A stretch of 64,000 nucleotides of DNA. Origin: Harriotta raleighana (Eukaryota). Below are positions 27,001-58,300 of this stretch, one piece after another; position 1 is the first letter of the stretch; each line of letters opens with the position of its first letter. Below the pieces are notes generated by a model. That model was not told the DNA's origin. It saw only the letters and a program-made list of their open reading frames with translations, and did not search any database. The stretch covers positions 4,622,753 to 4,686,752 of the forward strand of contig JBNZDD010013678.1 in assembly GCA_050575255.1 (NCBI GenBank), given 5' to 3'. Position numbers and translations under genes: made by a program.

Positions 27001-30000
27001 AAAATTTGCTTTTTGCCATGACAACTTTAAATAAATTAGAGTTGATTGGCATTTCAGTTTGCTTTCCAATATGTTCAATTTAGTTTTAAAGATCATTCCA
27101 GTATTTTAGTTCAGAATAATTCATATTATATTTCTCAACAATGTGTTAATTGATACCTGTTGTTGAACACTCCTGTTCATACAATAAATATAATCTATCA
27201 AGATGGTGCTTCCGATCACTGTTATGCGTGAGAAGAGTCCCCAATACTGGGGTGGGATACACACACACAACTGGGGCCTTTATTGATCATTGAATGGTTG
27301 AAATGAGGAACTTGATCAACATGCAGAGCACTTGGTTTAAGCATTCTTATCCATCTCCATACTTCCTCCCGAAATTCCCCTTGTGCAGCCCAGATCTCAT
27401 TTCCTGATCAACCATTTTTTTTTCTTCTGCTGACATAGGCACAAAAGCATGATAGACAAAATGGATTCACATACATGGGCACATTTGTCAGTGAGAACAG
27501 TTGGCTATAAAGGAAGAAAAATATACAAGCTTGCCCCACAACAATGGAGTTTGGACAAAATGCTTAAACGTATGACCAGGAGAAATTGCATTAAATGTAT
27601 GGTAATTCTCTCCCTATATTATTCTTACAGTGAACAAGAAACCTCTACGAATAACAATATAATATATAATATGTCAGCTTGTATACCTTGAACTGTTAAC
27701 TTGGCTTTGCAAGAGTCACTTCCAACCTCGTTTGTGGCTTTGCACAGATAGTCGCCACTGTCTGTTTTAATCACTGGTTTGATATCCAGGGCAGCTGTGC
27801 CACTGCTGAAGGTCAGTTTGAATTTGTCAGATGTTTTTATTTCTTTTCTGTCTTTAAGCCACTGGATCTTAATGGGTTCACCTCCGTGGACGTGACAGCT
27901 AAGCTGCAGTGACTCTCCTTCAGTTGCGGTCAGTGGTTTTAGAGGTACATCAAAGACAGGTGGCTTTTTAAGCTCTAGAGCAACAAAAAATACATGGTCA
28001 GCATTTCAAATGAAAATCTTATGTGGCCAAACTCTTTGTAAAATGCGGATACCTTGAAGCTATCTGTTGCTGCTTCTTACCCAATAAACTCCTACTTTTT
28101 TTAAACCAAGTAGGAACTGCATGATTAGTTAACAGAGCAGATACTTACCTCCCTCAGTCCACACACCGTTTAATCCAGTCAATTTGCCAAAATTTGGGTA
28201 ACCATGCCTCAAAAAAGAGGGTTCATCCGTTTAAATTAGTTTCATGTGATTTGAACTCTTTCCACACTGAACGGATACTTAGCGTAAGAATAATTAAGTA
28301 AGGTGAATGAAAAAGAAACACATCAAGATTGCAGAGACATTCTGTGAAATAAAACAGGCAACAGCATTTCGAAAGATTAAAATTCCCGGCCACTGTTATC
28401 ATGCACATTGATTAATAATTGCTTTGGTGACTAACCTTTGATGAGCACAGACACGGTAAATGTTGCAAATCCCACTTCATTGGAAGCCTTGCATGTATAA
28501 ACTGCAGAATCAATGGGAAGTGCTTTCTTCATGTTCAACAGCACCACATTATTCTTAAATGATATTTCATGCTCAGTTTGATGAATCTCCTGTTCATCTT
28601 TGAACCATGTTACAGACAGAGGTTGAGAACCAGAAATACGAGCTTCCAGTTTTACTGCCTTGCCTTCTGTATCCTGTATACTTTCAAGGGGCTTTTTCGT
28701 GAAGCTTGGTGGGATTTTACGTTCTGTAACAGATAGGCCCAGCAAACATAAATTTTTCTTCCAAGAAAGAAAAGAGTAAAAGCTTCGAAACATCCCTAGT
28801 GGCACAGTGCTCACATACGCTCTGCTCTCCTCTGGTTATGAATCCAGCCTAAGTACGATTGACTTCATGCTGAAGTCAGGAATTCATCATAAATTGGGTT
28901 TGGCAAGTCTCATCCCTTTTGGTAGAGGCTCAATCTCTCAGTTTCCCGAGAAAAGTGCTAAGGTTGGTCAGGGTATCAATTGAAATGTTGCCCAGACAAA
29001 GTAGAGGGTGTTCGAATTTGGAGCATTAAGTGCATTTTTTCAGACTAATTGTGTGACAAAAATCAAATCAACATTCCATTCAATAACATCTCCACTTGAG
29101 GAGTACAGATATTCACTGAGAACTCAAAAGAAATCCAAGTGAAACCACTGATATGTCCAGAGAAGATTTATCTGTATTTGTTGATTGATTTGCCTCAGAG
29201 GCCCTAAGAAATGATCTAAATGACAAGGAAATTTTTCAAGTCTTGTTTGGTAAATGCTTCATTTTCTCCTCTATTTGTCACTTCCCAAGAATAAATGCCC
29301 TGTTCTATGACTTCTAGTCATAGAAGACCATGACAATTGATGTGTTACCTTGAAAATATAACATGTGATATCTGTAACTATTTAATATTTCTCCCCTTGT
29401 TCATCAGTGCTACAAACACTTTCATATACAGTACACTGAAGCCCCTTGACTATTCTTTTCTTGCAAATGATGTAGCAATGATTTAAAATGTGCAACTCGG
29501 TACAGTCTATTAGACAGAAACAGTAAATTATTTGTAACTTTACATCAAATCTTACTAATAATGTGTTGATTTAGAATACCTGATGTATATGGCCATCACA
29601 CAAATAGTGTCAAAGAGTCTTCTGCTCTCATTCTACATCTCAAGGGCACATTTACCTCTGACTCACTACCCACCGTCTCCTTAGCTAGAACATTAGCTAA
29701 TGTTAATGTTGGGCCACTGTGTGCACATTATTCTCAAGGTTATTACATTTTTTCGCCTTGAACCGTTCCATTTTTACCTCTGGCATTTCGCTTTTGGTGC
29801 ATTTCAAACGGTGAATGTACAAAACAAAATCCTAAACATTCCTAATATTGTCCTGTTGAACACACTAGTGCACCCGACAGATTTTTCATATGGTTAAACA
29901 GCAACTCTTTAACCTTTACCTCATTAGTTAAAGAAAAAAGACAGACATTTGGAGAAAGACAGACATAAATGGGAGTTATTGAACAATACCTTTTGCAGTC

Positions 30001-33000
30001 ACCACTGCTGAGCAAGAGACTTTGCCGATGTCATTACTGGCCTGACAAGTGTATTGGCAAGAATCTCCCTTCTCTGCTTTCAGAATCGTCAAGTGAGGTG
30101 TATTGTCCTCAAAGGTCATCTTATAGATACCACCAGATCGGATCTCTCGGTTATCCTTCAGCCAGGTCACTTTGATAGGAGTAGAGCCAATTACATGGCA
30201 TTCTAGCTCTACTGGGTCGCCAGCTGTAACTTCCACTGCTTTTAGTGTTTTGTCAAACTCAGGAGCAACTCTGGCCTCTGAAAAGTCACAACATGTAAAA
30301 CAATTAATTTTTAATCATTGAATACTTCAGTTCTACGGGATCGACTTACTGCAAAGATAGGTACATGACATAGTAAATTCCAGAAAACGATAAAAAATAA
30401 GAGACTAAAATCTGCAGGCGATTGGTAATGTTTTAACCCAACAAACCTTTTATAGTTAGTTTTGAAGTACATGAGGCATCTCCAACCATGTTGGAAGCTT
30501 TGCAAGTATATTCACCGGCATCGGCCATTCCAACGTTGAGAATATTAAGAGTTGCTATCTTTTCTGTGAAAGACATTGTTACATTTTCTCCACTGGACAA
30601 ATTCACACCATCTATGAACCAAGAAATTTCAATTGGAGTCGAACCAGACAAGCAGCATTCAAGTGTCACTGGTTGATACACAGTTTTCTCCATGTTCTTC
30701 AATTTTCTTGTGAAAGAAGGTGGAGTTTTAAGTTCTGCAAAATAGATAGTCATAAAATAAGCATTTTAAAAGCCTTGGATTAACAAGATTTTATAAATAA
30801 ATAATTGCATTTTGGTACAGCGCTTTATCACGACATCTCAAAGAGCTTCACAGAATTTGCTGTGTAATGGAGTGACTGAGAATTTGCAGGCAATTGTGCA
30901 CATAGCAATGTCCCACAAACAGCCATGAAACATGACCAATTGTATTTGGGGGACCGTTGGTCAAAACACCAGGGGGGAACTCCCTTTTATTTTTAATAGT
31001 ACTGTGGGATTGTTAACATCCACTTGAAGAGAGACCTATGTTTAACATCTCATCCGAAGGACGGCAGGTCTGGCAATGCCACAGCGCCATATTGAAATGA
31101 CATCTTAAGACAATTATTTCCTGATGTGACCCCACAACCTTCTGCCTCAGAGGTGAGAGTGCCACCACTGAGCCAAGCTGACACACATTTTTGGAAGAAC
31201 AAAAAGATTAAGATGTCCAGACAAACAACTGAGTTTAGGGTAGACACATCAAACCACAAAGCAGCTTCACCTTGTACGGTCAGCATGGCCTTTGAGGAAC
31301 AGCTGCCAATTCTATTTTCTGCTTTGCAGATATATTCTCCACTGTCACTCAAAGATGTTTTCTTCAGTTCTAGTGTGGCCACATTGTTGTGAAACGTCAT
31401 CTCAATGTTAGTCATTGTTCTCAGCTTAGTGTCCCCTTTGTACCAAGACACTTTAATTTCAGAGGTTCCAGTCAGGATACAGGACAGAGATATTGCATCA
31501 CCGAGTGTGACTTCCAAAGGCACCAATTCATGGACAAATGTTGGTGGTTCTGTAATAATAACAATAACAATAAGAATTCTTACACCTTATCACATGTTCA
31601 AGACATCTCAAAGTGCTTACGGAAGTACTTCGATTAGACAAAAGCAATGAAAAGAAGGTGTGTGGATAAAATAGCAGAAAGCAGTTGCAAGTAGAAAACA
31701 TATAGATTTAACAAACCTAGTATAGTCACTTCAGCATGACAAATGTCCCCTCCGGCATCATTTTCCACCTCACAAGTGTATTTCCCACCATCATCACCAA
31801 TGCTGTGATGAATTTCTAATATGCAAGACTTATCGGTGGTGGTTATGGTATATTTTTCAGATTGAAACAATTCAAAATCATTTTTCTTCCAGATAACCTT
31901 GATTTCTGGGCTTCCCGAATAGGTGCAGTCCAGACAGACAGACTTGTTCAGTTCAATGCTGGAGTCCTTTAGTTTCTTCTGGAACACGGCTGGTTCTGGT
32001 AAAGACATACAAAAACCAAAGTGGTCAAAAAAGATCCCAGCAGAGCAATGTGAACTTTTATGGGGGATGGTTTGCAATTTGTACATTCACGAACCTTTCA
32101 CAAATAGATTTGTTGTGCAGGAATCTTTGCCAGCGTCATTGCTAACTTGACAGATATAGTCTCCACTTTCAGATGGTTCCACGTTCAATAGTTCGAGTAC
32201 TGCCACTGAGTCCGTCAAAGAAATATGACATTTTCTTCCAGTTACCAGTTCAGTGCTACCTTTGAACCACTTCACCTTCAGTGGGACAGTTCCAGTAACA
32301 ACAGAGGTAAATCTTGCTGTAGAGTTAGGTAAAACCATCTGAGATTCAGGCTTGCTCACAAATGAGGGTGGTTCTAAATGGGTCAAAAGAAAATAGTCCT
32401 CTGCATCATTAAGACATCCATTTAACTGATAAGAGATTTAACATTAGGCGTGAGCTGCATCTTCTCGCTCCAACTAAAAAAAAACTCTTCCTTTCAAATA
32501 AAAAATACATTTGTCCTCTTCTCTTCTAAAGGTGGTTTATCGTGCCTGGATACTGTTACACAGAATACCAATATTCCTCTGATATTTCATCCAAATGGTC
32601 CCTTTCTTTTTAAAAAAGGATTGTACCCAAGAAGGTGAGTTTCAGAAGAAGATTATTTAAACAGGGAAAGAGGGAGAGAGGAAATTGCAAACAAAATCCA
32701 ATCTTGACAGCTATTTAACATTCACATGTGTAGACTTCTAGCAGGCATTACTGACCAGTAAAGAACAGAGAGGGGACCCTGGTTGATTTTTCTCCTTTGC
32801 AAACTCAGAAGCTAATTTAGCATCTCACCCCTGCCCCCATCTTAGCGAGGCTGACCCCTCACAGATCAGAGACAGTATTTGACACCTCCCTGACCTGCAT
32901 TGCTCAATAGCGCACAACATGGATGAACTGAGAGCCCCCAACAAGTCACTCACCCTGAAAAAGTACAGCCACTGATATTTAAAGTAAATCATTACGCGTC

Positions 33001-36000
33001 GAGATGAAAAGAAAAGCCTTGATACCTGCAATGGGAAATCAACTGACCTTTCACTGTCAAGATACCACTGCATTCATCAGTTCCTGCCTCGTTTGTGGCT
33101 TTGCAGGTATAATTGCCAGCATCCAAGGTTTCCAGTGTGCTGATTCTCAAGCTACACGTGTTATCTGCAAAGGAGATGTCGTATTTTGCTCCAGGGGTGA
33201 TCTCCTGTGCGTCTTTGAACCAGGAGATGTGGAAGGGCGCTGATCCGGACAACTTACACTCCATGAGGATGGGAGAGGCCAGGAGGCCATCCGCTTGCTT
33301 TAGTTTCCTGGTGAACGTCGGCGGAATAATGCGATCTGTTTTTGCGAAGACACACCAACAACAGCCCAATGATTTACCAGAGTTTTCCTTTTCAACAAAA
33401 AACAACACACACACACACACACACACACACAGAGAAATAATTTAAGAATGCCTTGAAGAAAACAGGAGAGAGAATAAATGACAATTGAACCCAACCTAGC
33501 ACATTGATGGTGGCTTTGCAGCTGTCTCTGCCCACATTATTCTGGACTTCAAACGTGTACTGGCCCGAATCTTCCCTCTCTCCGCAAAGGAGCTTGAGGC
33601 TGGCGATCTTGTTGTGAAAACTGATCTTATACTTTCTGCCGGACACCAGCTCTTTGCCATCTTTGGACCATTTCACTTTGAGCTCTGGTGTCCCAGCCAC
33701 GACGCACTCCAGAAGCGTTGCATCTCCGGCAGTCACGCTGACAGACTCTGCCTTCTCCGCTATGCTGGCTGGCTCTGCAACACAAGAAAGAAACCCTTTG
33801 CGTTACGGACGCCTTTTGATGATGCGAAGGGAAACGATCAACTGGTTGTCCAAAGAAGTTGGTTGGTTCTCTTTGGGACAACTAGTTATGTGGTTGTAAC
33901 GTGATGGACGGTTGTAAACGTCGAAGGGGAACTGTTCTTGATGTTGTTTGTTGTTGTTTAAACCCCCACCCCCGCCCCCTGATCTTTTCCCCCTTTTTAT
34001 TCTTCTCCTTCCCTCTCTCCCTTTTCTCCCTCTTCCCCCTTACCCCCCTTTCTCCCTGGTTTTGCCTCCTACCCACCCTTCCCTCCCTCTTCCCACTTGC
34101 CAACATTTCTCCCTTTTTGCCCTCCCTGATTTCCCCCTTGTCCCCCTTTCTCCCCCCCCTTTCTTCCCTGATTTTACCCCACCCCGCTTTTCCCTCCATC
34201 TCTTCCCCCCTTGCCATTTCCCCCCCCCCCTTTTTCCCCCCATTTCCGTGTGTGTTTGTGGGACACTGCTGTGCGCAATTTGGCTGCCGCGTTTCGCCCA
34301 CAAATATACAGTCAATTTTTCCTACTCCTTGCCCTGAGCCCTCCCCACCCNCTCCAGATTGCTGACCTAGAATGAAGACTGTCGCGCTGGACTCTTGCAT
34401 TCCGGCATCATTTGTTATCCGGCAGGTGTAATGGGCGGCGTGGGCGCCTTCTGCTTCCGCGATGTGCAAAGCGACAAGGTTTTGTCCAAAGGATGTTGTC
34501 AGGCGCTCGGTCTCTCGCACTTCCTCCTTGTCCTTCAGCCAAGTGACGCGAATGGGCTCCGAGCCCTTGACGGCGGCCTCCAAAGTGACCGACCCTCCCA
34601 GGACCGAAGACGCGTCGGAAAGTTTCTTCACGAACGAAGGCGGCTCTGGAGATTGAAAGACAACAGAGAGAGGAGATTTACGGACGAGCTTCCCCTTGCG
34701 AATACCCCCCCCTCCCTCCCTCCCCACACACCCCCCAGGAAAACGCGCGAGAAAGCCAATGGGGTGGGAAGGAAAGATCAGACGAACCTTTGAGCGTCAA
34801 TGAGCCGACACAGCTGTCGCTTCCCACATCGTTGTTGGACGTGCACTGGTATTCCCCCACGTCCGCGGTTTCCACCTTGAGAATGTGAAGACAAGCCACG
34901 TGGTTCTCGTAAGTCATTTTGTATTTTTTCCCGGCTCGGATTTGCCGGTTGTCCTTGTGCCAAGTGACCACGAAGGGATCAGAGCCGGTGAGGGTGGCCT
35001 GGAGCGTGATGTCGGAGCCTTTCAGGACTCGGACCGACTGCAGCGTTTCAACGAAGGCGGGCGGCTCTGCAAAGGGAGAATTGGTGTCATTGGGTGTCAT
35101 TGATTCGTACGCGGGGCGGAGCAGCTCCAGAAGCTTGTGAGGCTTTGCGAGCGAACACAACGATAACAAGCCTTCCCACCTTTGACTGTGACCGCCACGC
35201 TGCAGCTCACGCTGCCTGCGTCGTTGTGGGCTTCGCAGATGTAATCCCCGCTATCCGGCAGGTCAGCCTCCCCGAGCTCCAGCACGGCCAGCGATTTATC
35301 GAAGGACGTTTTGTGTTTGTTGCTTGCTCTAATTTCGCTGTCGTTCTTGAACCAGGAGATCCTGATTTCGGGCGAGCCCGTCACTCTGCACTCAAAATGC
35401 GCCGATTCGCCCTTCTTCAGCACTCTGGTGGGCTCCAGCTTGTGGGTGAAGGATGGGGGTTCTAGGGAATCAAATGAGATTTGCACTTAGTGCAAAGGGT
35501 TGCCAACATATCCCTTGTTTGCGAATGGCTGAGGTTGTGAAACAGGGAAGAAAACGCACCGAGAAAGACCGAATAAAACAGCAAGAGAGAGAGAGAGAGA
35601 AAACAATTCAGTTTGACACTTACGTTATTATCAAATAAATGGTGGTTCACATAACATCACATTACATAAACGATTGACATATGAAAGAACAAATTTTAAA
35701 AGAAAGTATGCGATGAGGACGATAAGAGTCTAACGTAGAATGATTGTAATGAATAATACAATTAGAGAAACGTACTGAGATCATTCGGTAGCATAAAGAA
35801 ATGCGTAAAAGATAGGACAAACAAGACAGGTACCCAACAGATAACATGTACCAACACAACAACACAGAATTTCACACCTGTTACGGACAGTTTTGCAGTA
35901 CAAGTGTCTACGCCAGCATCATTGGCGACGTGACAAGTATAATATCCTGTATCAGAGGATTTCACTGAGCACAGCTCAAGAAAGCTGGAGGAAGTTTCCT

Positions 36001-39000
36001 TCACAATGATGCACGCAGCCTCAGCACTGAGCTCCTTGTCATCCTTAAACCATTTGAAAAAGAGCGGGAGAGTTCCTTGCGCAACACTGGTAAATTGCAC
36101 CCTCGAATCACGGGAAACTCCCTGTGAGACTGGCTTCACCACAAATCTTGGTGGTTCTAAAACAAAAAATTCATTGAAGAGAAATTGTGCATTTGAGACG
36201 AGAAGCGCCCGTGAAGATCCGCGGATTGCAGGAAGCTTACGTTTATGCTGCCGGCCGCACTAATTTCCGATAACGCGATTCGCGGAGTACTTATTTCAAA
36301 CTTCCGATCGATGCCGGATATTACAGCGGACATTTCACATAATTACTGGACACGTTTCACGTTAAAAGCATTGCAAAGACTGAGCAGAAAATAGTAAGGG
36401 ACTCTTTCCAACCTTTTACTGTTAGTGCCCCACTACATTCAGCACTTCCTGCGGGATTTGATACTCTGCAAGAATAAATTCCACCAGCTGCGACATCAAG
36501 TTGATTAATCTCCAAAGTTGACATGTTATCTTGCTGTGAGATTTTATATGTGCTGCTATCTGATAACTCTTTATCATCCTTATACCAATAAAAGCTCATT
36601 GGAAGAGAGCCAGCGATTTTGCACTCCATAGACACGGAGGACCCTAATACATTGCTCATCTTCTTCAATTTTTTCAGAAATGTCGGTGGAATTATTCGAT
36701 CTGCACGACATAAAGCACAACCAATCAGCTTTCAAACGTCAACTTTTCTTTTCACACACACTGAACACTGAAGAATATGTCTCAATTGTATTTCTTTACT
36801 ATCGAAATTTTCTAATGTTCCAATATATGGGAAAAAAAAACACCAACCTATTGCTGTCAATGAAGCTTTGCAACTGCTGACTCCAAAGTCATTTTGGACT
36901 TCGAAAGTATATTCATCACTATCCGTCTTCTCTACAGACATAATCCTTAGACTGGCCACCATTTTCTCAAAGCTTAGTGTGTAATGTCTGTCCGATGTCA
37001 GTTCCTTTCCATCCTTAAACCATTTTACTCTTAAGTCTGGTGTGCCAGTCACAGTACATTGCAAAATTGCCGGATTTCCAATAGTTACATTGCATGAATC
37101 TGCTTTTTCTATAATGTTTGCGGGTTCTGTTTGAAAAGAAATTGTACTGTAATGTTCACATACTTGACATTTTAATGCAGCTTTCTCTTGAATGCAAAAG
37201 CAAAGAGGTAATGTTTAAATTTATGCAACACACAATTGGAAGTATTGGATCCAGTGTGGGGCATCCTACTATAAAAAGGGGATCAAATTCATTGAGGGGG
37301 TAGAGTGGAGATTTACTAGGGAGAATGAGGGGTTATATGTAAAGTGGGGGAGACTTACAAAAGTTGGGACTATTTTTATAAGAACAGAAAAGATTAAAGG
37401 AGGACCTGATGGAGGCTTTCAAAAAGATGAATGGATGGAAAATGGGATGGAAAATGGATGTTGATTGGGCATAGAATGATCGACTATTTTCCTCTGTTTA
37501 AAGTAAATTGAACAGTATCAGTATTGAGCAGAAGAATGAAGGGATAAAAGTTAAGAAATATATATATATATATATATAATTTTACATAGACGGCTTTTGG
37601 ACACTGAGTCCATATGGCATTTCCAAGGGAATTGGGTAAATACGAGAGAGGAAATTAAAGGGTATGGAGAAAGAAAGAGCAAGGGAATGGGATTCGCTGT
37701 AGTTGGAGAGCACAGATGTGATATCTCTGCTATAATTCATGCCTTGTCCAATTATACTGCTGAATGCCAGCTACCAACCTGTTACTCTCAATGTAGCAAA
37801 ACATTTCTCAATCCCTGCATCATTTTTGGCCTGACAGGCGTATCTTGCACCGTGTTTTGCTTCAACAGATATAATTTGTAGGGCGGCCACATTATTCTCA
37901 AAAGAAATTATGACATTGTTATCCTCCTTGACTTCGTCCTGATCCTTCATCCAGTTTATGGATAAAGGCTGGGAGCCTTTTACCAGGCACTGAAACACTG
38001 CGGAATTCCCAGCAAAAGTTGTGACATTTTCAATCCTCTTTGCAAACGACGGTGGGTCTGGTTTAAGACAAACAGTCAGGAGATACGATTAAGTTCCCTG
38101 CTCCCTTCTTCTCCGAAATGCTAATCAAACGATGCTAGATCCCGTTAAGGGTGAGGTTTAAACTATCCTGCGCGGTGTCGCGGAACAAAATCCTTTTGGA
38201 TTTCAACTGACCTTTCAGTTTGAGACTGCAACTACAGACACAACTTCCCACATCATTTGCAACCGTGCACTTGTAGTCACCGGCGTCTGAGAAATCCGCC
38301 TTCAAAATGTGAAGGCTGACCAGAGCGTTTTGTGTGAGCATCTTGTACTTTTCGCTGGACGAAATCTGTTTGCTTTCCTTATGCCATGTCACGTCAAAGG
38401 GACCCGTACCCATCACCTCACACTCGAGAGTGACCTCGCAGGCTTTGACTACCTCAGTGGGCTGGAGTTTCCTCTTAAAAGAGGGGGGTTCTACGAAGCA
38501 ATCACAACGAAAGAAATACATGTCAACCAGAGTGCTGAGAGCAACAGTAACCCCTATCGGTACTGACAGGGAATAAATACTTTTGTCTAATGCACAGGTT
38601 GGTTTCTGAGTGAATCAGGGCGATGATGATGGCGATGATGATGCTTTTACAGACCTTTAACTTTCATTTCTGTGCTGCAGCTGTCACTGCCAGCTTCATT
38701 CCGTGCTTCACAGGCATAATGTGCACTGTCACTCAGATCGACCGCAAGGATCTCAAGAACTGCCATGGAATCATCAAACGACATCAAGTATTTCTCATCG
38801 GCATTGATTTTATGGCCGTTTTTGCACCAAGTAATTTTGATTTCAGGTGTGCCGGTCACAATGCATTCAAAGCGTGCAGAGTCCCCATCCCTCAGCACTG
38901 TAGAAGACTCCAGCTTTTTAATGAAGCTCGGAGGTTCTAGAAACCAAAATATAATCAGCTTAAATATACCGGTTATCTGAAGGCGACTAGACTTAGTGAT

Positions 39001-39167
39001 GAATATAAAAAGATACTGATAAGTAGCTAGAATTATTATTTTTTTTTTTTAAATCTCTTCTGCTCTAGAGAAAAGCAATGTCAAATTACTTCTTTTTGTG
39101 AATTGGTTTTAAGTATCTTCCTCCATCTTACTGTATTCCATCATGTTTCTTTATCTCGGGCTGCAGC

Positions 39168-39230
<63 letters not shown>

Positions 39231-43322: not shown

Positions 43323-43356
<34 letters not shown>

Positions 43357-46300
43357 GTTTCAAATCAATGCGAGGAAAACAATGAAAATGGGAACAAATC
43401 TCTGATGAGAATGAGCTTAATTCGTGAAGATGATGGGTAGATTTGCCAAAGCTGTGAAATGCACTGAAATATAGTAAGTGAATCTCTCAAACCTTTTACA
43501 GTAAAGACATTGCTGCATTTGTCACTTCCCACTGAATTGGTTGCCTTACAAGCGTAAATCCCACCATCTGCAATCTCTAGTTCTGCAATCTCCAAAGCCG
43601 ATGTGTTGTGTTGGCTGGACAGTTTGCATCTTTCATTATCTGAGATTATTCTGTCATCTTTATACCATGAGAAACTGATTGGAAGAGACCCAGAGACTTT
43701 GCATTCCATGAGTATAACAGATCCTAAAACACTGTCCATTTTCCTTAATGTTCTGGTAAATACTGGAGGAACTGCTTGATCTGTCCAAGACAAAGTGACA
43801 AAGCACAACCAGTCAACCTTAACAACAAAATGGTGGGAGGGGCGGAAGTATTTCCCGGAACTTTACGCTTCAACGCTTTAGCTTTGATAGGAATTTTGTA
43901 ACTAGTAAGGAAAAAAAATCCCTGATCATAAGCAACTCTCGTGAAGCCCCCTGATACTGCAGTAGAAAAGTTATGAAACCAGTCCAAATTGGAGCTCATC
44001 TTTTAATTAAAATATCTCTCCCAGTATGATTGAAATCGACAGCTTAAGCAGCTCGGAATCGTTTCCTAAAATTCCACACAACGATTATGGGGGTAATAAT
44101 TCCTTCAAAATGTAAATTAAAAGTAAAAATAATGATGATTTGGGTACTCCATCTAGGACTGTTTTGGGGGGATGCTGCTGTGCACTTCCACCCACTATTA
44201 CGCAGCCAATCCACTTTACAATGTACTCTGTGAAGCTAAGTGATGTGATAAGGCGCTTTGATCAAATGCAATGACTAAATGACTATCGGCGTGAAGGTTG
44301 ATCGATCTTCTGTGATAACCTAATCATCAATGGGCTCAGGTACAGCCGCCGCCATCAGGGTTTTTTTTTGTTTCTCCTTCCATTTGCCACTTGCTGTCCT
44401 GCCCGAGAAAACTCCCACCAACTCCAGGCCTGTCAACGCGTGCTTTGCTCGTGCCATCGTCCCCCCACGCAAAGAAAATCACCAACCTAGGACTGTCAAC
44501 GACGCTTTGCATCTGCACGACGCAAAGTGATTCTTCACCTCGAACGTATAATCCCCACTATCCTCCTTACAAACGGATGGGAACGTTAGCCTGAACACGT
44601 TATCCTGGAAGCTGATGGTGCACTTCTTACTGGACACCATCTCCTTCCCATCCTTAAGGCATTTGACTGTTAATTCTGGTGTCCCGCTGACGGTGCATTC
44701 CAGATTGGCTGGATCGCCCACAGTAACGCTAAGCGAGTGGGCTTGCTCTGTCACTTTTGCTGGCTCTGTGAGGAGGAAACACACTCTCTTCAGGAAGGGA
44801 ACATCACGGCATTGGACAAGGACGTTGTTTTTCTTCTCTTTTTTTTTGATTTTGTTTAAAAAAAAAGCTTTGGGTCAATAAAGAAATCCCCATTTAATAG
44901 GCGGTAAAAAGCTAATCCCAACTCTCAAGTCCACTGACCTGCTACTAATAATGTGGCAGAACATTTCTCAGTTCCAGCATCGTTCGTGGCCTGACATATA
45001 TATTTCCCTGCATGTTTCTCTCCCGTGGTGTTTATTTGCAGAGAGGCAATATTGTTCTCAAAAGACAGGGTTACATCGCCGTCCTCCTTCACATCGCCTC
45101 TATCTTTTATCCAAGTTACGCAGAGAGGTTTGGAGCCTGTGACCAGGCATTGAAACACGGCGGGCTTCCCAGCGAACACTGTCATGTTCTCGAACTTCTT
45201 TGGAAATCCTGGGGGCTCTGGTTGAAAATGAACAGTCATGCGTTCAGGGTTGTGTGAAAAGATTTCACGCCCGCGACACCGAAAGGTCTCCTTAAGCGGA
45301 TTGGGAAACAGTTGGGGGGGGGGGCGGAATATATACTTTGACACTCTGCAGTTAGCTGCAATGCTTCAGCCACAAATAAAACACCCCCAGACAATCCATC
45401 TCCTTTGCAATATATTCTGTGAGCGCTTTGGGATGTCTTCACGACGTGATGAAGCGCGAAATATCAAATGGAAGGATTATTATTATTATTAATATCATCA
45501 TCATAACACAACTGACCTTTCAAACTGACTCCAGCACTGCAGGAACAACTGCCCACATCATTCTTTACTGTACATTTGTATTCACCAACATCTGAGAAGT
45601 CAGATTTTACAATGCAAAGGCTGGCTGATGAATCATCAGAAGTCATCAGGTATTTTTTACTAGGTCGAATGTGCTTACTGTCCTTATACCATGCAACTTC
45701 AAAGGGACCTGTGCCAGTCACCTCACATTCAAGAGGTACATCGTTTGTTTTCACTACCTCTACAGAGTCCAGCTTCTTGGTAAACATGGGCGGTTCTGAG
45801 GAGCAAAGACAGTGATTTACCAGAAAGCTCCAGAAACGCGGCCAGTGAAACGCTCAATGCTGGTGTTTGTGTTTACAAACCTTTAACTTGCAGCACAAAG
45901 TTGCAACCGTTGCTGCCAGCGTCGTTCTGGGCTTCACAGGAATAATCCCCACTGTCTTCCAGGCTTATCCCAGAGATTTCCAGCAGCGCCAATGAGTTTG
46001 CAAATGACATCCTGTGTTTCTCACTGGCTCTAATTTCACTGTTATTTAGATACCAAGTCACTGTGATGTCCGGGGTACCGGCTATTTTGCACTCAAAACG
46101 TCCAAACTCTCCCGTTTTTAACACCGCTGCGGGAGCCGGCTTCTGAGCAAAAGTCGGAGGTTCTGGAGGAATGAAATGCAATTAACCGGAGCCCCGAACT
46201 TACAGGTGGAATTGCAATCCACTCTCTTCAATATTCAGGTACCCGCATTGCGGGCAAAGAACATAAGCGACAGACAAACGACAAGACAGACAGACTGAAA

Positions 46301-49300
46301 CACCCACTTCAGACGGATACTTACCTTCCAACGCAACTAAGTGGTAAAGAGAGTTACACGAATCTCAGTCGCGAACTGATAAAAGAGTTCCAAACATGCG
46401 CACCTTTTATGAGCAGTTCTGCGTGGCAGGTGTCTGCACCCACGTCATTGCTGACTCTGCAGGTGTAAACACCAGCATCAGTCACTTTAGTTGAGATCAG
46501 TTCCATGAAGTGTGTTGATCCTTCATTCCACAGGGAACATGCCGCAGCAGACTTCAGTTCCCGGCTCCCTCTGAACCATTTCACAGCCAGTGGAAGAGTT
46601 CCTTTCACAACGCTCTTAAAATGCACGGTGGATCCAAGGATGCTACCTTGGGATACTATTTTTTCTACAAAGCTGGGTGGCTCTAATTCATTTCAGAGGA
46701 GGAGAGGAAAAAAAAAGAGTGAAATTAGCCGCAAGGAGAGAGAAAAAAAAGCTAGCGTTTGAAACGAAAACTCAATGTGCAATTCCAGCATCTTAAACCT
46801 TGAGCCAAATTTATCTAGCAAAAAATTTTTTAATGCAAAAGTAAAATATGGAAATGGAAACGGTATAGTTGCAGTTGCCAACAAAAAAAAACCAAGCAGA
46901 GGATTTTATCATTGGAAAATTAGCTTTCGGTGAGTGTTAAAGAAGAAGTGGAATGGGGGTGGTGGTAAATGTGGTCTTCAAACCTTTAACGGATAAGGAT
47001 CCACTGCATTCACAACTTCCAGCTTCATTTGTTGCTTTGCAATAGTAATTTCCATCATCCGCGATTTCAAGTTGAGCGATCTCCAACACTGATGTGTTGT
47101 CTTCAAATGATATTGTGTATTTGTCATTTGCCATTATCTCTTTGTTATCTTTGTACCAAGAAATGCGGATTGGATGAGAACCAGACACTTTGCATTCCAT
47201 GTGCATCAAAGCCCCTAATATGTCATCCATTTTCTTTAACTTTCTTGTAAATGATGGAGCAATCATTCGATCTGTCCAACACAGAGCAATAAAACAAAGG
47301 CCGTCAGCTGAAAGCAGCATATTTTTGCAATAGTTTGCAACGTTTTTCTTAAAGTACTTGTAATGTCCCATTAGCATTTCAAAGCATGAGCGTGGTGAAT
47401 GCGGACATGAAGAACTAAGGATATAATTATGGTTGTAGCTGATATCCTCAATGCCTATAGGCCAATCGACACTCAATCTGAATATTGATATTTTCTACTA
47501 CAAAAGGCTATAAGATAACAACAATATTCAGATATGATGCCAGAGCATTAGAGCATTTACAAGCCTTCATTAATTAAATTAGACTGGAAATGATTTATCT
47601 TGAAATGCATGTTTGATATGAGCAAAGCTTTCAATGCACAAATTCACCAACCTAGCACAGTCAAAGACGTTTTATAGCTCTCTTGTCCAAACTCATTCTT
47701 GACCTCGAAAGTGTACTCTCCACTGTCATCCTGATCAACAGACAGAACCTTCAGGCTGGCCACCTTATTCACAAAGCTTATTTTATATTTCCTGCTGGAT
47801 GTCACCTCCTCTCCATTCTTGAACCATTTTACTTTGAGTTCGGGTGTGCCAGCTACAACACATTCCAAACTTGCTGTGGTTCCTGAAGTAACATTTAGTG
47901 GTTCTGTTTTCTCTAGGATTTGTGCGGGTTCTGTGAGAAAAATCACACTACCTCATTAGAAGAAATAAGAACGAATGATTTGCATCTTTAAAGCCCAAAC
48001 CTCCTTAAACCCCATCACACCCTTCCTTGCTCCACTGGCTCACATTCACAAAACGGATCGATTTTAAGATTCTCTCACTCATTTTTGAATACCTTTTATG
48101 CTCTCGCACCTGCCTACCTATCCGATCAGCTCATCCCCAACTCCACCATCCTCTCTGCTCAGCTGGCTCCAGCCTCCTGTTTGTCCCTATTCCCTTCCGC
48201 TCTACCATCGGAGGCAGTGCCTTCAGCCACTACGCCCCAAAACTCTGGAACTCTCCCTCTTAATCCCTCTTCCTTTCTCCCTCACTTTCTACTTCTAAAT
48301 CCCATCTGAAGACCTTTCTTTTTGATCGTGCTTCCAATCACCTCCCGCCTTCCTCTGTGACACTGTCATAAGTGCTACATAAATGAAAGTCATTGTTGTT
48401 GTTCAATGAGTAACTGTAGTTAAATTAATTCAGTGACAAAGAATGATCCATCAACCTCTATATTTAGCCTCTCATACTAACCTGTAACTAACAAGGTAGC
48501 AAAACACTTCTCAATGCCTGCATCATTGCTGGCCTGGCATGTGTACTTTCCACTGTGACTGTGTTCAACAGCAGCGATTTGAAGTACAGCGATATTGTTC
48601 TCAAAAGAAATTTTAATGTTATCATCTTCTCGGATTTCATCCTTGTCTTTCATCCAGGTAACACTCAGAGGAGGCGAGCCTCTTACGCAGCCTTCAAAAG
48701 TGGTTGAATTTCCTGATAATGCCTTCACATTCTCAATCTTCTGCACAAATGAGGGGGGTTCTGATTTTGAAGTTAAAAAGTTATACAAATTCAAATGTTA
48801 GTGCACTGGATATTCTTTCGCAACATGAATCAAGCGAACACTAACAAAAATACTGCAAAATTGCAAACATCCCAAAAAAAGCGAATGGTCTGCAAACATC
48901 TGCTGAACTGACCTTTCAATCGAACTCCAGCAGAGCANAAATACTGCAAAATTGCAAACATCCAAAAAAAAGCGAAAAAAAGTCTGCAAACATCTGCTGA
49001 ACTGACCTTTCAATCGAACTCCAGCAGAGCAAGTGCAACTTCCCACATCACTTGCTACTTTGCACTTGTATTCACCCACGTCTGAGCTATCGATCTTTTG
49101 AATGTAAAGACTGACTAAGGAGCGTCTATCGAACATCTGGAATTTTTTACTAGGTCGGATTTGCTTATTGTCCTTAAACCAAGTGATGTCAAAAGGGATT
49201 GTGCCAGCCACTTCACACTCAAGACTCAGATCAGTGGCTTTTACCACATCGACTGCAACAAGCTCCTTTCTAAAAGAAGGAGGTTCTAAAAGAAAAAGAA

Positions 49301-52300
49301 CACACAACAAAAGGTTTCGGATATCAACCAAACTGAAAGATTTCTGAAGAAAATGACTTGCAAATACTTGTACCACATTGTTCGCAATAAGACACGAACC
49401 TTTAACTGTAACTGTGACAGTGCATCTGTCAGTGCCGGCTTCATTCTGCGCTTCGCAAATGTATTGACCACTGTCCTCCACACTGGCATTGACAAGCTCA
49501 AGCAAAGACACCGAATCAACATAGGATGTTCTGAACTGGTTAGTTGGTTGAATTTCAGTTTCATACTTGTACCAGGTAACTTTGATATCAGGCGTGCCTG
49601 TTACAGTGCATTCAAAAGATGCTGAATCTCCCCTTTTCAGCAATGCTGTGGGATCTGGTTTCAGAACGAAGGTTGGTGGTTCTACAAAGGCAAAAGTGTA
49701 TCGAAATTATTCCCAAGGAAAGCAATTGAGGTGTTCAAATACCTCATCTCAATACCTGAAAGCATGTTCAGATGAGATATTTGAGCAGTGATGGATGAGA
49801 CATGAAAAATAGGTTGTATGCTAAATAAAACAGAGTGTTGAGAAGCACAACAAAACCAAGCCATCATAATTGTTGCACTAAAAAAACAAATGTCAATCTA
49901 ATTTCTATTTTAAACTTGTCTATACTCAAAAGCCTCCTAATTTCCTGAACTGAACTCATATGTTGCACAAAGTCAAAAGCACATAGATGTCAAATGATCA
50001 GTAGCCATTGAATAGAATACATCCGGTACCTTGCAACATCAAGAAAGGCATTTTGATGGACTTTACATATCATTTGACAATATCAACAGGAAAATTACTT
50101 GCATCCTCTCCCCCCCCCCCCCCCCCCCCCCCCCNAGTACATCCGGTACCTTGCAATATCAAGAAAGGCATTTTGATGGACTTTACATATCATTTGACAA
50201 TATCATCAGGAAAATTACTTGCACCCTCTCCCCCCACCCCCACCAAAAATTTGTAAAAAATGATTTGACATGCTACAGTTGTATTTAAATCATTTGGAAT
50301 CCTTGATTTGTGCAACTAACATGATACTAACATATATGATTATATTTTATAATATACATAGACGTACAAATAAGTACTTACCTGAACATAAACCTCCTTA
50401 TGACTTCAGATGACACAACTCACCCACCCTTTGGGCTCATGAGTCACATAGTCTAATGTAANATGCTACAATTGTATTTAAATCATTTGGAATCCTTGAT
50501 TTGTGCAACTAACATGATACTAACATATATGATTATATTTTATAATATACATAGACGTACAAATAAGTACTTACCTGAACATAAACCTCCTTATGACTTC
50601 AGATGACACAACTCACCCACCCTTTGGGCTCATGAGTCACATAGTCTAATGTAGCAAATTTTCTTTCAAAAATATTATTTGACAATTTCCTACATAATCT
50701 CTTTATAAGTTTAAACCAAATCATTTCAAAATGTACCTCGTCAAATTATGCCAAAAAAACTTACAACATCTTAAAATTGCAAGTTTCCATTTTCTCTGAG
50801 AACAACAACGAATATTAAATAGCATCAATATGAAAACCAANACAAATTTTCTTTCGAAAATATTATTTGACAATTTCCTACATTATCTCTTTATAAGTTT
50901 AAACCAAATCATTTCAAAATGAACCTCGTCAAATTATGCCCCAAAAAACTTACAACATCTTAAAATTGCAAGTTTCCATTTTCTCTGAGAACAACAACAA
51001 ATATTAAATAGCATCAATATGAAAGCCAAGATTGTTCAGTTTGTGTGACAAGCAAAATCAATCAAACAAAGCCAGATCACAAAACAAGTAAACGCAGACT
51101 GGAATAGAAGGATAAGAAAGAGAAGAAGTTACAATGATTTTCGCAATAGAATTCAAAGAAAATTTACAGTGTTCGGTGGAAACACTAAGAGAAAAGTCAC
51201 ACCTTTCACAAAGAGTTTTGCGCCGCATGTCACTGTTCCAACTTCATTGCTGACTTGACATGTGTAGTCACCCGTGTCTGATACGCTGGCCGAAAAGAGC
51301 TGGAGCAAACTTGTTGACCCTTCCTTTGAAATGTAACACGATGGACTAGATATCAACTCCTTGTCGTCCTTGAACCATTTTGTAGTCATTGGAGGTGTTC
51401 CACTTACAACGCTCCTAAACTGCACTTTAGTGCCAGGCACTATGTCTTGGGACAGCGGCTTCATAGTGAAGTATGGAGGCTCTAAACATTTCCGGAGGAA
51501 AATTGCAAAAATGGCAATTAACATAAAGGTAAAATGAAGACAATGCTTTACTTTTAAAAGGTTGATCAAATGAAGGATGAAGCATGTCCCTAAAGCATTC
51601 CAACCATGTTTGGTTACCTAAGATGGAATGATAAGTTATGGTCGCGGTGATCAAACGGGTGTTAGCTAAGTTAAGAACTCTAGGAGGCACTTTGACAAGA
51701 CTGAATCAGAACAAGATCAAAATTCAAACCTTTTATAGTTAAGGCGCCACTGCACTGGTCACTCCCAGCTGCATTTGTTGCAGTGCAAGTGTACTTTCCA
51801 GCATCGTTCATCTCTAGTTGGTGAATTTCCAACTGTGCCATATTATCGTGAAATGAGATTTTATATTTTTCATCGGCTGTTATCTCTTTGTCGTCTTTGT
51901 ACCACAGCAAATTCATGGGAACCGATCCAGAGATCTTGCATTCCATCTTAACGAAAGAAGCTTTCAAGCCATCCATCGGCTTTAGTTTCCGCTTGAATGA
52001 TGGAGGGACTGTGCGATCTGCCCAACACATGGTAAAAATGCAACCGTTGTCATGTCTTCGAAGGAAAGATTACTGAACAAAATTGTTCTTTTGAAAGAGG
52101 CATCTGAGCAGCGCAATAAAGAAAACACTGATACCAACCTAATACTGTTACAGAAGCTTGGCAGCTACTACTGCCAACATCATTCTTCACCTCACAAGTA
52201 TATTCAGCGCCGTCTGCTTTCTCTGTGGCTAGAATCTTTAAACTAGTTACTTTATGAGTGCTACTAATTTTATATTTTCTACCAGACATCAACTCTGTGC

Positions 52301-55300
52301 CATTCTTAAACCATGTAGCTGTAATCTCGGGTGTTCCTGTGAAACTGCACTCCAGAGTTGCTGAATCTCCTGCAGTCACACTGATGGATTCTGCCTTCTC
52401 TATGATATTTGCAGGTTCTGTATCAAAAATAAGAGTGTAAGAACATGGCAATACAACACCATATTTAAGATAAATAAGAAAGAATAGAAGAACGCAAGTA
52501 TATAAAGAAAGGAAGAAATAAGAAAAGACCATTTCGGCCCATTTGGCTTGCTCTCTTTTGAGCTTTTATATTGAATTGATCAAAGAGCTTTATTTATAGT
52601 TTCACTAATCCCAGGTAGCTCAGTTTGTCGAGCACCAGATTTTGGACCCAGGGATCCTATGTACAAATCACAATGGGTCCATTCAACACTTTACCTTGTT
52701 GAGGTGGATAAAATAAGTTATGTGACTTACAATATCCTCCATGGGGTAAGTGGAGTCAGTCCAGGCACAGGTTTATTGTCAGCACCTTGGGACGTCCTCC
52801 CAACTTGAAAGCCACCATACAAATGGGATTTTTTTGTGGTTGTTGTTGAGTATTCAACAGTCTGTCAGACTTATTAATGAACCTCATAAGCATAGCAAAG
52901 CCCCAATGGGCCAGTCTTAGGTTGCCAACCGTTTACTAATGCTTCATAAATAATATTACCCTTTCATAACTCTACCCCTTAGAGATTTGCCTACAAAAAT
53001 TCACAGTCACCACACTTCATAGTAAATCCTGTGAAGTCCTTCAAGAAGTCCTCCTAATGTGAAAATGTTCTGTCAAATGCAAGGATGACTATTTTTAGAT
53101 TGTATGACTTGTTTTATATTCTAGAATGTAATTAGCCCTTCTAAGCAATTATTACACGCACATCCAATTATTACAACACTATATACACACAATTGCCTGC
53201 AGTAATTATAATATTAACTACTTACACAAATCATTATTTATGTTTGAATGACAATTCAACAACTAGCAAACAGTATACTTCTCTTCCATCTGAATATCTT
53301 AAATGCCTCTGCATAAACTCTCTTCCCTTCTTCACTTGGCTGAGTTACACTCACTAGGACCATCTTAAAATAATATTCCCTCAGTTTCAATAACTCTCCC
53401 CATTATTATGGTATTTCTCTTTCCCACTTAGTTATACTTATAGCTCAGTAACATTCACCAGCCCACATGATCACTTGACAAGCAAGAATCCAGCAACATT
53501 ATGTCACCATTTTCTTAACCTCTTATATCTTACATTATAAATAACAATAACATTCCTTGCATTTGATATGACGCATATGATGATTTCACTTCAGGTAGTT
53601 GTCTCGAAGAAGGGCTTTCTGTGAAGTGTATTGAGGGTATTTTGCAGGCAAATGCAGAAGTCAATTTGGACACAGCATTGTCCCACAAGCAGCCATGAAG
53701 TGAATGACCAGTTTATTATCTGGAGATTTTTGAATCAGGACACCAGGAGAAGATCCCCTTCTCTTTTCAATTGGTGCCAAAAGAGCTTTAACCTCCACTT
53801 GAGCAGGTAGATAGGACCTCAGTTTAATGTCGAATCGATGGATGGTTCTTCCAACTATGCAATGCTTTCCCCGCCTTGTGCTGGAGAGTCAGCCGAGATG
53901 ACGGGATTTCAAAATCATGACTTGAGGCTTTCAACGCCTTGGGACGTCCTCCTGACGTGAAAGGCACTATACAAGTGTAATTTTGTTGTTGTTTTTGAGG
54001 CTTGAACCCATAATGAGCCAGGCTGACAGCCAAGTTAATATCAAACTCAACTTTTAATTACATTGCATTTTAGATGTTTAAAAATTATAGAAAAGCTTAT
54101 GGTTCTCATTAAACCTGTGTTGATTTCTGTAACAATCTTCCAGATGATATTGCACTTCATTTGGATGCTTTACAACTGAATCACCCCCCGTACAGTTACA
54201 AACAACTGTTATTACATTTAGAGTGGTTGCCAAAGTTGAAAGATAACACACTTTATCCAATAATGTCTGAAACCAACCTTTCACTACCAAAGCTGCAACA
54301 CACTTTTGGCTTCCTGCGGCATTCTTTGCCTCACAGAGGAACTTTCCACTGTGATGGTTTTCAACGCATGCAATCTGAAGTGTGGCTACATTCTTCTCAA
54401 AAGAGATTTTAATGTTAGCATCTTCTCTGACATCGTCTTTATCTTTTTGCCAGGCTACGGAAATTGGGCTGGATCCTTTCACAGAGCACTGGAACACAGC
54501 CGAGCTTCCCAGCAGCACGGAAAGATTGTCAATCTTCTTAACAAACGACGGGGGCGCTGGGTGTGAAATAAAATACCAAGAGTAAGAGATTCGTCGATGG
54601 GTCCATTCCAGTAAAGAGTCATGCTACGATACTGAAACAAGAATTGTATTGCAACAGAAAGAAAGGCACTTGTTAAGTCTTCACCAACCTTTCAATGTCA
54701 CTGAAGAGCTGCACTCACAACTTCCTATTTCGTTAGACACCTTGCAATGGTATTCACCGGCATCTAAAGTGTCGAATGAAAGAACATGCAACCTAATGGA
54801 AGAGTCTTGACAGATTGTCTTAAACCTTTTGCTCGGTCGGATTTGTTTCTCTTCCTTGAGCCACATGATGTCGTAGGGGCCTGTACCAGTGACTTGACAC
54901 TCAAGAATGACTTCAGAAGCTTTCAACACCTCAAGACTTTCAAGTTCTTTGGTGAAAGATGGTGGTTCTACAAAGCAACACACGATAAATTCAATCAAAT
55001 AGGGTTCTGTAAACACTCAAGCATTCATCATCTCAGAGAGTTGTTTCCTGATTATGGAACATTAAAAGAAAGACAATGTGTGGACAGACCTTTAATTGTT
55101 ACGGTAACACTGCAACTCTGGCTCCCAGCTTCATTCTGGGCTTCACAAATGTATTCACCACTGAGTTCCACAGTGGCATTAAGAATTTCAAGAACTGGTA
55201 CAGAGTCAACAAATGACATCCTGTATCTGTCACTAGCCTGAATCTTCTCGTCATTCTTGTACCAGGTAACTTGAATTTCGGGTGTGCCAGTCACTTCACA

Positions 55301-58300
55301 CTCAAATCGTGCTGAATCACCCTGTTGAAGTAATTTTGATGACTCCAGTTTCCTGAGGAACACTGGGGGTTCTATAAAAATCAAGATATCAAAGAATAAT
55401 TCATGTAAAAGCTATATAAAAGAAGACACAGACGAAAACACAGACAAAAACATTCATGCCTGTTCACAGCGATTGATAATTTCAACTGCCAAATATATGT
55501 ACACACCAACAAATGTGCACCATTGGAAACATTTTGATACAACCAAAGGTAGAGAATAGCAAAAGGAAAGTTAGAAACTAGATAGCTCTCTTAGGAATTT
55601 GAACATAAAATCGCACCTTTCACAAAAAGATTTGCTGTACTTGAAATCGTTCCTGCATCGTTGCTGATTTCGCAAGTGTAGTCACCCATGTCAGAAGGTT
55701 TCACCGAAAAAAGTTCAATGAAAGTGGAGGTATTGTCCTTCATGATGAAGCAGCTGCCGCCAGTCACCAGCTCTGTGTTCCCCTTGATCCATTTGATTGT
55801 AAAAGGAGGTGTTCCATCCATGACAGCCTTGAACTTCACTGATGAACTCGGTATCACTTGCTCTGATATTGGTTTGACAAGGAAACTTGGGGGCTCTAAA
55901 AGACATTCAGGAAAAAAAAAGCAAATCAATAATAAACGAAAATGGGGCGAGCATGCTTTTTCCCATTAACTCTGCTTGAGGCATAAATAAAGGCAAGTTG
56001 CCATTTGTTTTGCTCAGAATCTATGTGAAAGCAAGAGCAACAACACATGGACACAATATGAACAAGATAGTCGTCAATGAAGAAACATATAGATGTTTCT
56101 ATTTGTAAAGAACATTTGCACGTTTTAAAAATGTTTACAGAAGCACCGAATAGATTTGATGAAGCTTTAAAACGAGAGGAGAAACGAAACAATGTGAGCA
56201 GCGTTCGAATTCATTGGAAATGAACGATTTCAAACCTTTGACAGCTAAAACCCCACTGCATTCATCCTTTCCCGCAGGATTTGTAGCTTTGCAGGAGTAG
56301 GTTCCACCGTCTGAAAGCTCCAGGTGACTAATCTCCAGGCTTGCGGTATTGTCGCGACATGTTATTTTGTATTTGTCACTGGCCGACAGCTCTTTTTCGT
56401 CTTTGTACCAAGAGGTGCTGATGGGAACCGAACCGGAGAATTTGCATTCCAGGTGTGACGAGCCGCCCAAGATGCCTGACTCCTTCCGGAGTTTTTTGGT
56501 GAATGAAGGGGCGATCATACGATCTGTCCAACACAAAGTAACCGAGTTATTGGAATCCAATCACAGAGGTACAGTATTTACATTCATAAGTCAAGGTGAC
56601 ATGGCAATGAAAATCGTGTAATGTTATACTAACCCAGCACAGTGATAGATGTTTCACAACTGCAACTACCCACGTCATTTTTGACTTCAAAAGAGTATTT
56701 CCCGCTATCGCTTTTTTCCACAGAGAATATCTTCAGGCTTGCCACCTTGTCCGAAAGAATGGTCTTGTATTTCCTTGGAGATAATAACTCATTGCCATCC
56801 TTAAACCACTTAGCTTTGAGTTCTGGAGTACCAGCTATAATGAACTCCAGAGTTGCTGGGTCGCCGGCGGTTACACTGATGGGTTCGGCTTTCTCTAGGA
56901 TTTTTGCGGGTTCTGTGACAAATATCAAATGGATACCAATAAGAGAACTCACCAGTTGAAGGCGTCACCGTGTTATAAAACAAGGATTCGTGAATGAACA
57001 CATTATAAAGATCGCCCAACTGACCTTTCACGGTCAGTATTGCGAGGCATTTCTGACTTCCAGCTTCATTTTCGATCTCACAGGAGAACTTGCCGCTGTT
57101 TCTCATCTCCACAGCGGCAATCTGAAGCGTCCCGACATTGTCCTCAAAAGTCATCTTGATATTGTCGCTCTGGGTGACAATATTTTTATCTTTCACCCAA
57201 GTGAGAGTGATGGGAGCCGAACCCTTGACGGTGCATTGAAACACAGCAACGCTCCCCAAAAGGGAAGTGACGTTTTCGATCTTCCTCACAAATACAGGGG
57301 GCTCTGAGTTAGAATCAACAAACACACACAGATGAAAATTTCTGCTAAAACCATCCAGACGCCCAATGGAGAATTCACAAGCTTCTCGTTACGGCAGGCA
57401 GATCAAAAAGTAATTTTGAATTTTTTTTTCCCCCTACCGAAACAAAAACGACGACGACAACGTGACCCACCTTTTATCTTCACTGAAGCACCGCATGAAC
57501 ATTTCCCCACTTCATTGGAGACTGTGCACTGATAGTCACCGACATCTGAGAACTCAAAGGAACTGATGTGCAGGGAAGCCCGAGTGTTCTGACAGATCAA
57601 CCTGTATTTCTTGCTGCTTCGAACCTGCTTTTTGTCTTTATGCCAGGTCACTTCAAAGGGAGGGGTGCCGAGCAACTCGCATTGAAGAGTGTGATTGAGT
57701 CCTTTGACGACCTCAGCTTCCTCAAACTCCTTGCTAAAAGAAGGAGGTTCTGTAAAGCAACACACGCACAAAAAGACAAACTCAAGATTCGAGTCAATTT
57801 GGAACCGCCGATCTAGTGTAAAAAGATTAAAGGAGAAAGCCACCAGAAATCTCTGTGACCATAGAATTAAATCGATATCAGCCAAAGAGAGATCTTACAG
57901 ACCTTTGATCGTGATGACACAGCTGCAGCTGTCAGTACCAGCTTCGTTTTGTGCTTCGCAAACATACTCCCCGCCGTCCTCGATCATCAGATCAGCTATA
58001 TCGAGGGCAGCTATCGCATCGATAAATGATGCTCTGCAGTTTTCTGAAGGGCTGAGGATGTTATTGTTCTTGTACCAGATCACACTAATTTCAGGTGAGC
58101 CCTTTATTTTGCATTGCAAGTGGAGAGAATCGCCTTGTTTCAACAGCAGAATTGGGTCTGGCTTCTTCACGAACGAAGGAGGTTCTGAAGAAAGGTTTGA
58201 AGAAACATTATAAGAGGCACTTCACGAAAGTTAAGTATCAGAAAAAGACAAGTGCGGTGTGAGTGAGCGAAAAAGAAAGCACTGAACATCAATAATCAGA

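Follow-up and report, generated by a model that had tools for sequence, protein, structure and literature searches.

The window analysed here is a 64,000-nt stretch of Harriotta raleighana DNA (GCA_050575255.1, contig JBNZDD010013678.1, positions 4,622,753 to 4,686,752) with the middle tandem-Ig segment of titin on its minus strand. Positions 58184-27687 (-) contain 48 titin Ig exons, all of them AG/GT-bounded, phase 1-1 and open in reading frame. A scan for splice sites and Ig motifs returned 44 exons, and a self-built HMM run over six frames returned four more, whose AG/GT ends were then placed; the HMM detected no further Ig exon within 58184-27687, where the remaining matches had E > 0.07. 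The exon sizes read (282-279-279-279-288-279)x7 followed by 279-279-288-288-288-288, an exact reproduction by scan and HMM of the 48 exons and the sevenfold 282-279-279-279-288-279 pattern in the original prediction. The best solved-structure matches are titin 3B43/2RIK and the best named homologues are vertebrate titin fragments, which assigns the exons to titin. The single-domain homologue search returned only one distant Dscam match, and the search of 50% representatives returned a few vertebrate middle-Ig fragments and not the full segment.

Upstream of the array, a long open reading frame at 63013..64000 (-) is the 3' portion of a long titin exon; it is truncated by the window end and terminates in an Ig domain (match at 63286-63014). 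From gene order, we take this to be the N2B exon with I26. It is followed by a 279-nt exon located by the Ig scan and equivalent to I27 (61557..61835, -) and by a 564-nt two-Ig exon equivalent to I28 and I29 (60196..60759, -), both domains of which match sturgeon fragment P0156 at 57%. The two-Ig exon and the 48 exons together encode the 50 Ig domains that had been counted from I28 to the I79 equivalent. The total of 51 domains consists of three upstream, 36 in six 6-Ig blocks, ten in one 10-Ig block and two closing domains. The 6-Ig blocks, all on the minus strand, are block 1 (e30-e35, 55617..58184), block 2 (e36-e41, 51203..55371), block 3 (e42-e47, 46404..49681), block 4 (e48-e53, 42829..46162), block 5 (e54-e59, 39621..42562) and block 6 (e60-e65, 35878..38936). 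The single 10-Ig super-repeat (e66-e75, 29990..35461, -) begins with a seventh six-domain block, homologous to the 6-Ig unit, and continues with four other domains. Four Ig domains and a unique exon at 23976..26378 (-; ends approximate), recognized from open reading frames and Ig matches, presumably form the N2A segment, a label that comes from gene order. With these labels, the array lies between N2B and N2A/PEVK with one phase 1-1 exon per domain. The two closing Ig exons, e76 and e77 (27687..28723, -), match sturgeon P0156 at 61% and 70% and are the equivalents of human I78-I79 (PMC12241362).

Period of six and contiguity of the array

Across the 42 block domains, a domain and the one six positions away are on average 54.8% identical; 10,000 shuffles gave 34.9 ± 1.4%, with a maximum of 40.8. 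Adjacent domains are 22-39% identical, and whole blocks are 48-60% identical to one another (54-60% among blocks 3-6). Each of the six position classes forms one side of a branch in a tree of all 51 domains; four of the classes are starred for support, and positions 1 and 4 have values of 80/82 and 74/17. The lag-six identity, the shuffle test and the position clades identify the repeating unit as a 6-Ig super-repeat with six position classes in fixed order. Copying in units of six domains would keep neighboring domains dissimilar.

The count of six plus one would be an artefact if N joins in the assembly concealed additional 10-Ig or 6-Ig blocks, or if blocks had been falsely duplicated. There are six N joins in the range, two join sites fall at block borders, and the flanks at 34351 and 39231 do not overlap. 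False duplication is contradicted by the low identity between blocks, and the flanks at 48938, 50135, 50462 and 50841 overlap by 90-191 nt, so these four joins duplicate sequence rather than hide any. Four runs (X1, X2, X5 and X11) were compared with the window over 27600-39100. X1 and X2 hardly differ from the window, and no piece bridging 34351 is among those listed in X1, X2 and X11. Record 18 of X5, an 8,113-nt contig from a relative that is ~90% alike, aligns on both sides of 34351. It has ~550 nt between the equivalents of window positions 33788 and 34810, with e68 absent from the listed aligned pieces. This distance fits e68 and two short introns only and leaves no room for hidden exons, which answers, by way of the relative's contig only, the concern that the N at 34351 hides more 10-Ig repeats. 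A high-copy interspersed repeat at 34253..34351, in the intron between e68 and e69, borders this join; it has several copies in the window, the depth peaks very strongly over it in each of the four runs, and it is the likely cause of the assembly break. Block 5 leads directly to block 6 in C. milii, Mobula and Mustelus proteins, block 2 leads directly to block 3 in a Mobula protein, and the accessible text of PMC12241362 gives the identical count from another genome and cDNA. We consider an assembly artefact highly improbable.

Block 7 and the 10-Ig type

The solved structure 3B43 covers titin I65-I70 (table in PMC3859903) and was used to place the domains of the seventh block. The motifs GSDSCVGS and KKLSD...NDAGMQE, from which the original prediction had recognized a 10-Ig type, fall within the second and third domains of block 7; their counterparts in 3B43 are domains 5 and 6, the best matches of e67 and e68, respectively. 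The 3B43 domains score higher against block 7 than against the matching domains of block 6 (108.9 versus 94.9 bits and 83.4 versus 75.2 bits). Exons e73, e74 and e75 are best on 3B43 domains 1, 2 and 3 with 78.8, 79.4 and 94.8 bits (runners-up 59.9, 58.2 and 65.5). Newt, lizard and Albula fragments map in order onto e72-e75, and the domains beyond the first six correspond to bony-vertebrate 10-Ig positions 7-10, in keeping with the proposal that the 10-Ig unit is a 6-Ig unit plus four domains.

Trees of whole blocks were built with bony-vertebrate blocks from a hand-picked subset of fragmentary gene models; domains were labelled by best match and order, some rows are composites of fragments, and full-length sequences from human, zebrafish, coelacanth and lamprey are absent from the trees. 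A branch with 100/100 in the 40-row tree separates block 7, the outermost member, and 12/12 bony-vertebrate 10-Ig blocks from all other blocks, and the same grouping has 100/100 in a 49-row tree. The ten tetrapod 10-Ig blocks form their own group (100/99) in the 40-row tree. The 51-domain tree likewise sets block 7 apart from blocks 1-6, at position 2 with 99/94 and at position 6 with 99/97. Judged by sequence, block 7 is of the 10-Ig type and blocks 1-6 are of the 6-Ig type.

A mammal-like ancestor, with blocks 4-6 as counterparts of tetrapod 10-Ig repeats, each shortened by four domains, would fit the total of 51 Ig domains, which is near the human total of 53, and the homology of a 6-Ig block to domains 1-6 of a 10-Ig block. 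Every 10-Ig block groups with block 7 only, and the 3B43 scores likewise favor block 7 over block 6. The tree that the original prediction had named as its own refutation, with repeats 4-6 paired one-to-one with mammalian 10-Ig repeats, was addressed by constraining blocks 4-6 to group with the tetrapod 10-Ig blocks; the constraint costs 162 lnL and is rejected within the limits of model and sampling (p-AU 1.3e-42). The chance that blocks 4-6 are shortened 10-Ig repeats is negligible.

Orthology and age of the 6-Ig blocks

Blocks 1 and 2 are the orthologues of bony-vertebrate blocks 1 and 2 in the 49-row tree (95/97 and 99/97). Every one of blocks 2-6 has a ray or shark partner at 100/98-100, including a Mobula block for block 3 (100/99), a Mobula block for block 4 (100/100), Mobula and Mustelus blocks for block 5 (100/100) and ray and shark blocks for block 6 (100/99). 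The ray and shark fragments P0163, P0164, P0167, P0218 and P0223 contain one-to-one partners of these five blocks, and their domains match those of the window at 55-79%. Exon e51 of block 4 has a Cys at the otherwise invariant core Trp position, and its Mobula partner has the same Cys. These pairs place the six-block state before the chimaera-elasmobranch split. Separately, Mobula hypostoma has two block-5-like stretches that are 80-87% identical.

Blocks 3-6 form a group restricted to cartilaginous fishes at 89/96 in the 49-row tree and 58/92 in a smaller tree, below the 95 bootstrap mark; the 89/96 group agrees with an increase from three 6-Ig blocks to six. At positions 1-4 the sister of this group is bony block 3 (87/76); at positions 5-6 that place is taken by block 2 together with bony block 2 (94/89). 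AU tests were chosen after inspection of the trees and their p values are uncorrected. On these terms, at positions 5-6, a group of blocks 3-6 with bony block 3 is marginally rejected (p-AU 0.038) and blocks 3-6 as a cartilaginous-only group are not rejected (p 0.17).

The disagreement between positions bears on whether four to six 6-Ig blocks were present in the jawed-vertebrate ancestor, some of which bony fishes lost, possibly out of register. Positions 5-6 pair block 2 and bony block 2 (95/92) and place the pair together with blocks 3-5 (93/92); restricting blocks 2-5 to a cartilaginous-only group, as a clean out-of-register model with one source would produce, is marginally rejected there (p-AU 0.024 and 0.049). 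A pairing of block 6 with bony block 3 is not rejected (p 0.47, 0.39 at positions 1-4, 0.11 at positions 5-6), and the mutual identity of blocks 3-6 is low (54-60%). Against ancestral loss, the best trees from all positions and from positions 1-4 (57/17) both contain the cartilaginous-only group of blocks 3-6, which is not rejected at positions 5-6; the tests on the side of loss were picked post hoc, and extra losses are required. Ancestral loss is quite unlikely. Also unlikely is the broader statement that the extra 6-Ig blocks either predate the cartilaginous/bony split or arose by out-of-register copying that joined block 2 positions 5-6 with block 3 positions 1-4. If the blocks are older, the ancestral spring would have been longer than the published 3+1 and shortened in bony fishes, and part of the 'convergent lengthening' would be retention.

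The preferred reading is gain by tandem copying. The jawed-vertebrate ancestor would have carried three blocks of the 6-Ig type and a single 10-Ig block, and one six-exon unit would have given rise to four copies (blocks 3-6) before the chimaera/shark split, probably by unequal crossing-over; tetrapods would have multiplied the 10-Ig block separately. Intron similarity between blocks, as assessed by self-BLAST, is confined to short stretches beside or between exons. A transposon at block borders has been raised as a possibility (PMC12241362, accessible text); in the window self-BLAST, short interspersed repeats are present in several introns and do not occupy equivalent block positions, and the block borders have no repeat in common; the idea gains no support. 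We assign a probability of about 0.85 to the reading that the window holds a titin middle tandem-Ig segment with six 6-Ig super-repeats followed by one 10-Ig super-repeat, that it comes from a chimaera that is likely not the elephant shark, and that the arrangement likely arose by early tandem copying of six-exon blocks in cartilaginous fishes. Convergent lengthening from a shorter spring, as originally predicted, stands as the best reading with a 3+1 ancestor; it is unproven, with 89/96 for blocks 3-6 and disagreement between positions 1-4 and 5-6. The companion claim, that this lineage reached its length with a different module than mammals, was correct in that the 6-Ig module was expanded here and too narrow in that 10-Ig multiplication also occurs outside mammals. 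Among predicted gene models, one from a lizard carries two consecutive 10-Ig blocks and one from a frog joins position 10 to position 1, which suggests that 10-Ig multiplication is tetrapod-wide.

Spring function and comparison with known titins

In titin generally, the I-band spring includes the tandem Ig chain; the folded chain straightens under stretch, and more Ig domains make a longer, softer spring. All exons of the array are phase 1-1, so any run of them could be skipped in frame and thereby set spring length. In elephant shark cDNA analyzed by PCR, i28-i69 are left out in heart and i36-41 in skeletal muscle (PMC12241362), the latter being exactly one block. The same source, in its accessible text, links neighbor dissimilarity to avoided co-aggregation and cites a figure of roughly 70% identity; neighbors in the window fall below it.

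The layout has a published counterpart in Callorhinchus milii, the elephant shark, with six super-repeats of the 6-Ig type (e30-65) plus a single 10-Ig super-repeat (e66-75) (Hanashima et al. 2025, PMC12241362). The window shares e27-29, the six 6-Ig blocks, the 10-Ig block and e76-77 with the same numbering and in colinear order (3 + 36 + 10 + 2 = 51). Seven of nine elephant shark primers match the same-numbered window exon with 0-3 mismatches; primer i51 matches only a paralogous exon with three mismatches, and primer i68 has no match. C. milii fragment P0166 is colinear with e59-e65, across seven domains, with 561/645 residues identical, and its block pairs with window block 6 at 100/99 in the 49-row tree. 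The two loci are not near-identical (87% amino-acid identity; 2/9 primers exact), and the sequence likely represents a second chimaera with the elephant shark layout. No report of the middle-Ig segment of a second chimaera was found in literature outside subscription papers.

The layout, the 6-versus-10 homology (domains 1-6 of the 10-Ig unit correspond to the 6-Ig unit) and the conclusion of independent lengthening from a 3+1 ancestor are all already in print in the accessible text of PMC12241362. The finding that two vertebrate lineages reached ~50 Ig domains by copying different modules, a convergent lengthening of a protein, was published in 2025. What the window contributes is a further animal with the 6+1 layout, likely a second chimaera, and ray and shark partners of five blocks that date the six-block state; unlike this analysis, the accessible text of PMC12241362 contains neither block-to-block orthology nor discussion of loss.

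Other titins differ in which module was copied and how often. The whale shark expanded the same module as the window and has two more 6-Ig blocks, eight with one 10-Ig (PMC12241362). Zebrafish connectin-a, which is outside our alignments, has three 6-Ig blocks and a single 10-Ig like the window, thus three fewer 6-Ig blocks (PMC12241362), and teleost blocks 1 and 2 are orthologous to window blocks 1 and 2 in the tree. Human titin has three of each (PMC12241362), and two extra human 10-Ig repeats are mentioned in the accessible text of PMC12198301. Human I27-I79 has the same six and ten position classes and the same flanking domains as the window. Its length, like that of other mammals, comes from copies of the 10-Ig block, which belong to the separate tetrapod group, and not from copies of the 6-Ig block as in the window.

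Divergence among the Ig exons

Of 51 domains, only the one encoded by Ig exon e51 lacks the Trp found at the core of the Ig fold. Its place is taken by a Cys codon at window 44659-44661 on the minus strand. The Mobula birostris orthologue likewise has Cys at the core Trp position. The substitution is an old change common to the window and Mobula birostris rather than an error of sequencing. The position-2 exons of blocks 4 and 5, e49 (45517-45795) and e55 (41453-41731), show 78% identity at the protein level and 82% at the DNA level, values clearly higher than those for other block pairs. Gene conversion or slower change may account for this closeness.

PEVK exons and assembly breaks

Many short PEVK-type exons lie at about 200-14400 as near-repeated intron-exon units, an array that is likely the product of recent tandem expansion. 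N joins with overlap occur within this stretch at 231, 435, 4752 and 13477, and mis-assembly of the region is possible. Poly-C runs of 62 bases (39169-39231) and 25 bases (50110-50135) each terminate at an N join and are the likely cause of the assembly breaks at 39231 and 50135.

Possible repeat expansion in other titins

Titin fragments from Knipowitschia (P0043), Fundulus (P0135) and Poeciliopsis (P0273) contain domain runs that best match position 7 of the 10-Ig block with low scores, including about nine such domains in P0043. These runs hint at a single-domain expansion in one teleost titin. The Mobula hypostoma fragments P0223 and P0163 hold two block-5-like stretches with 80-87% identity at positions 4-6, which point to an additional, younger six-exon duplication in rays. 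The eight blocks of the whale shark would suggest the same kind of extra six-exon duplication.
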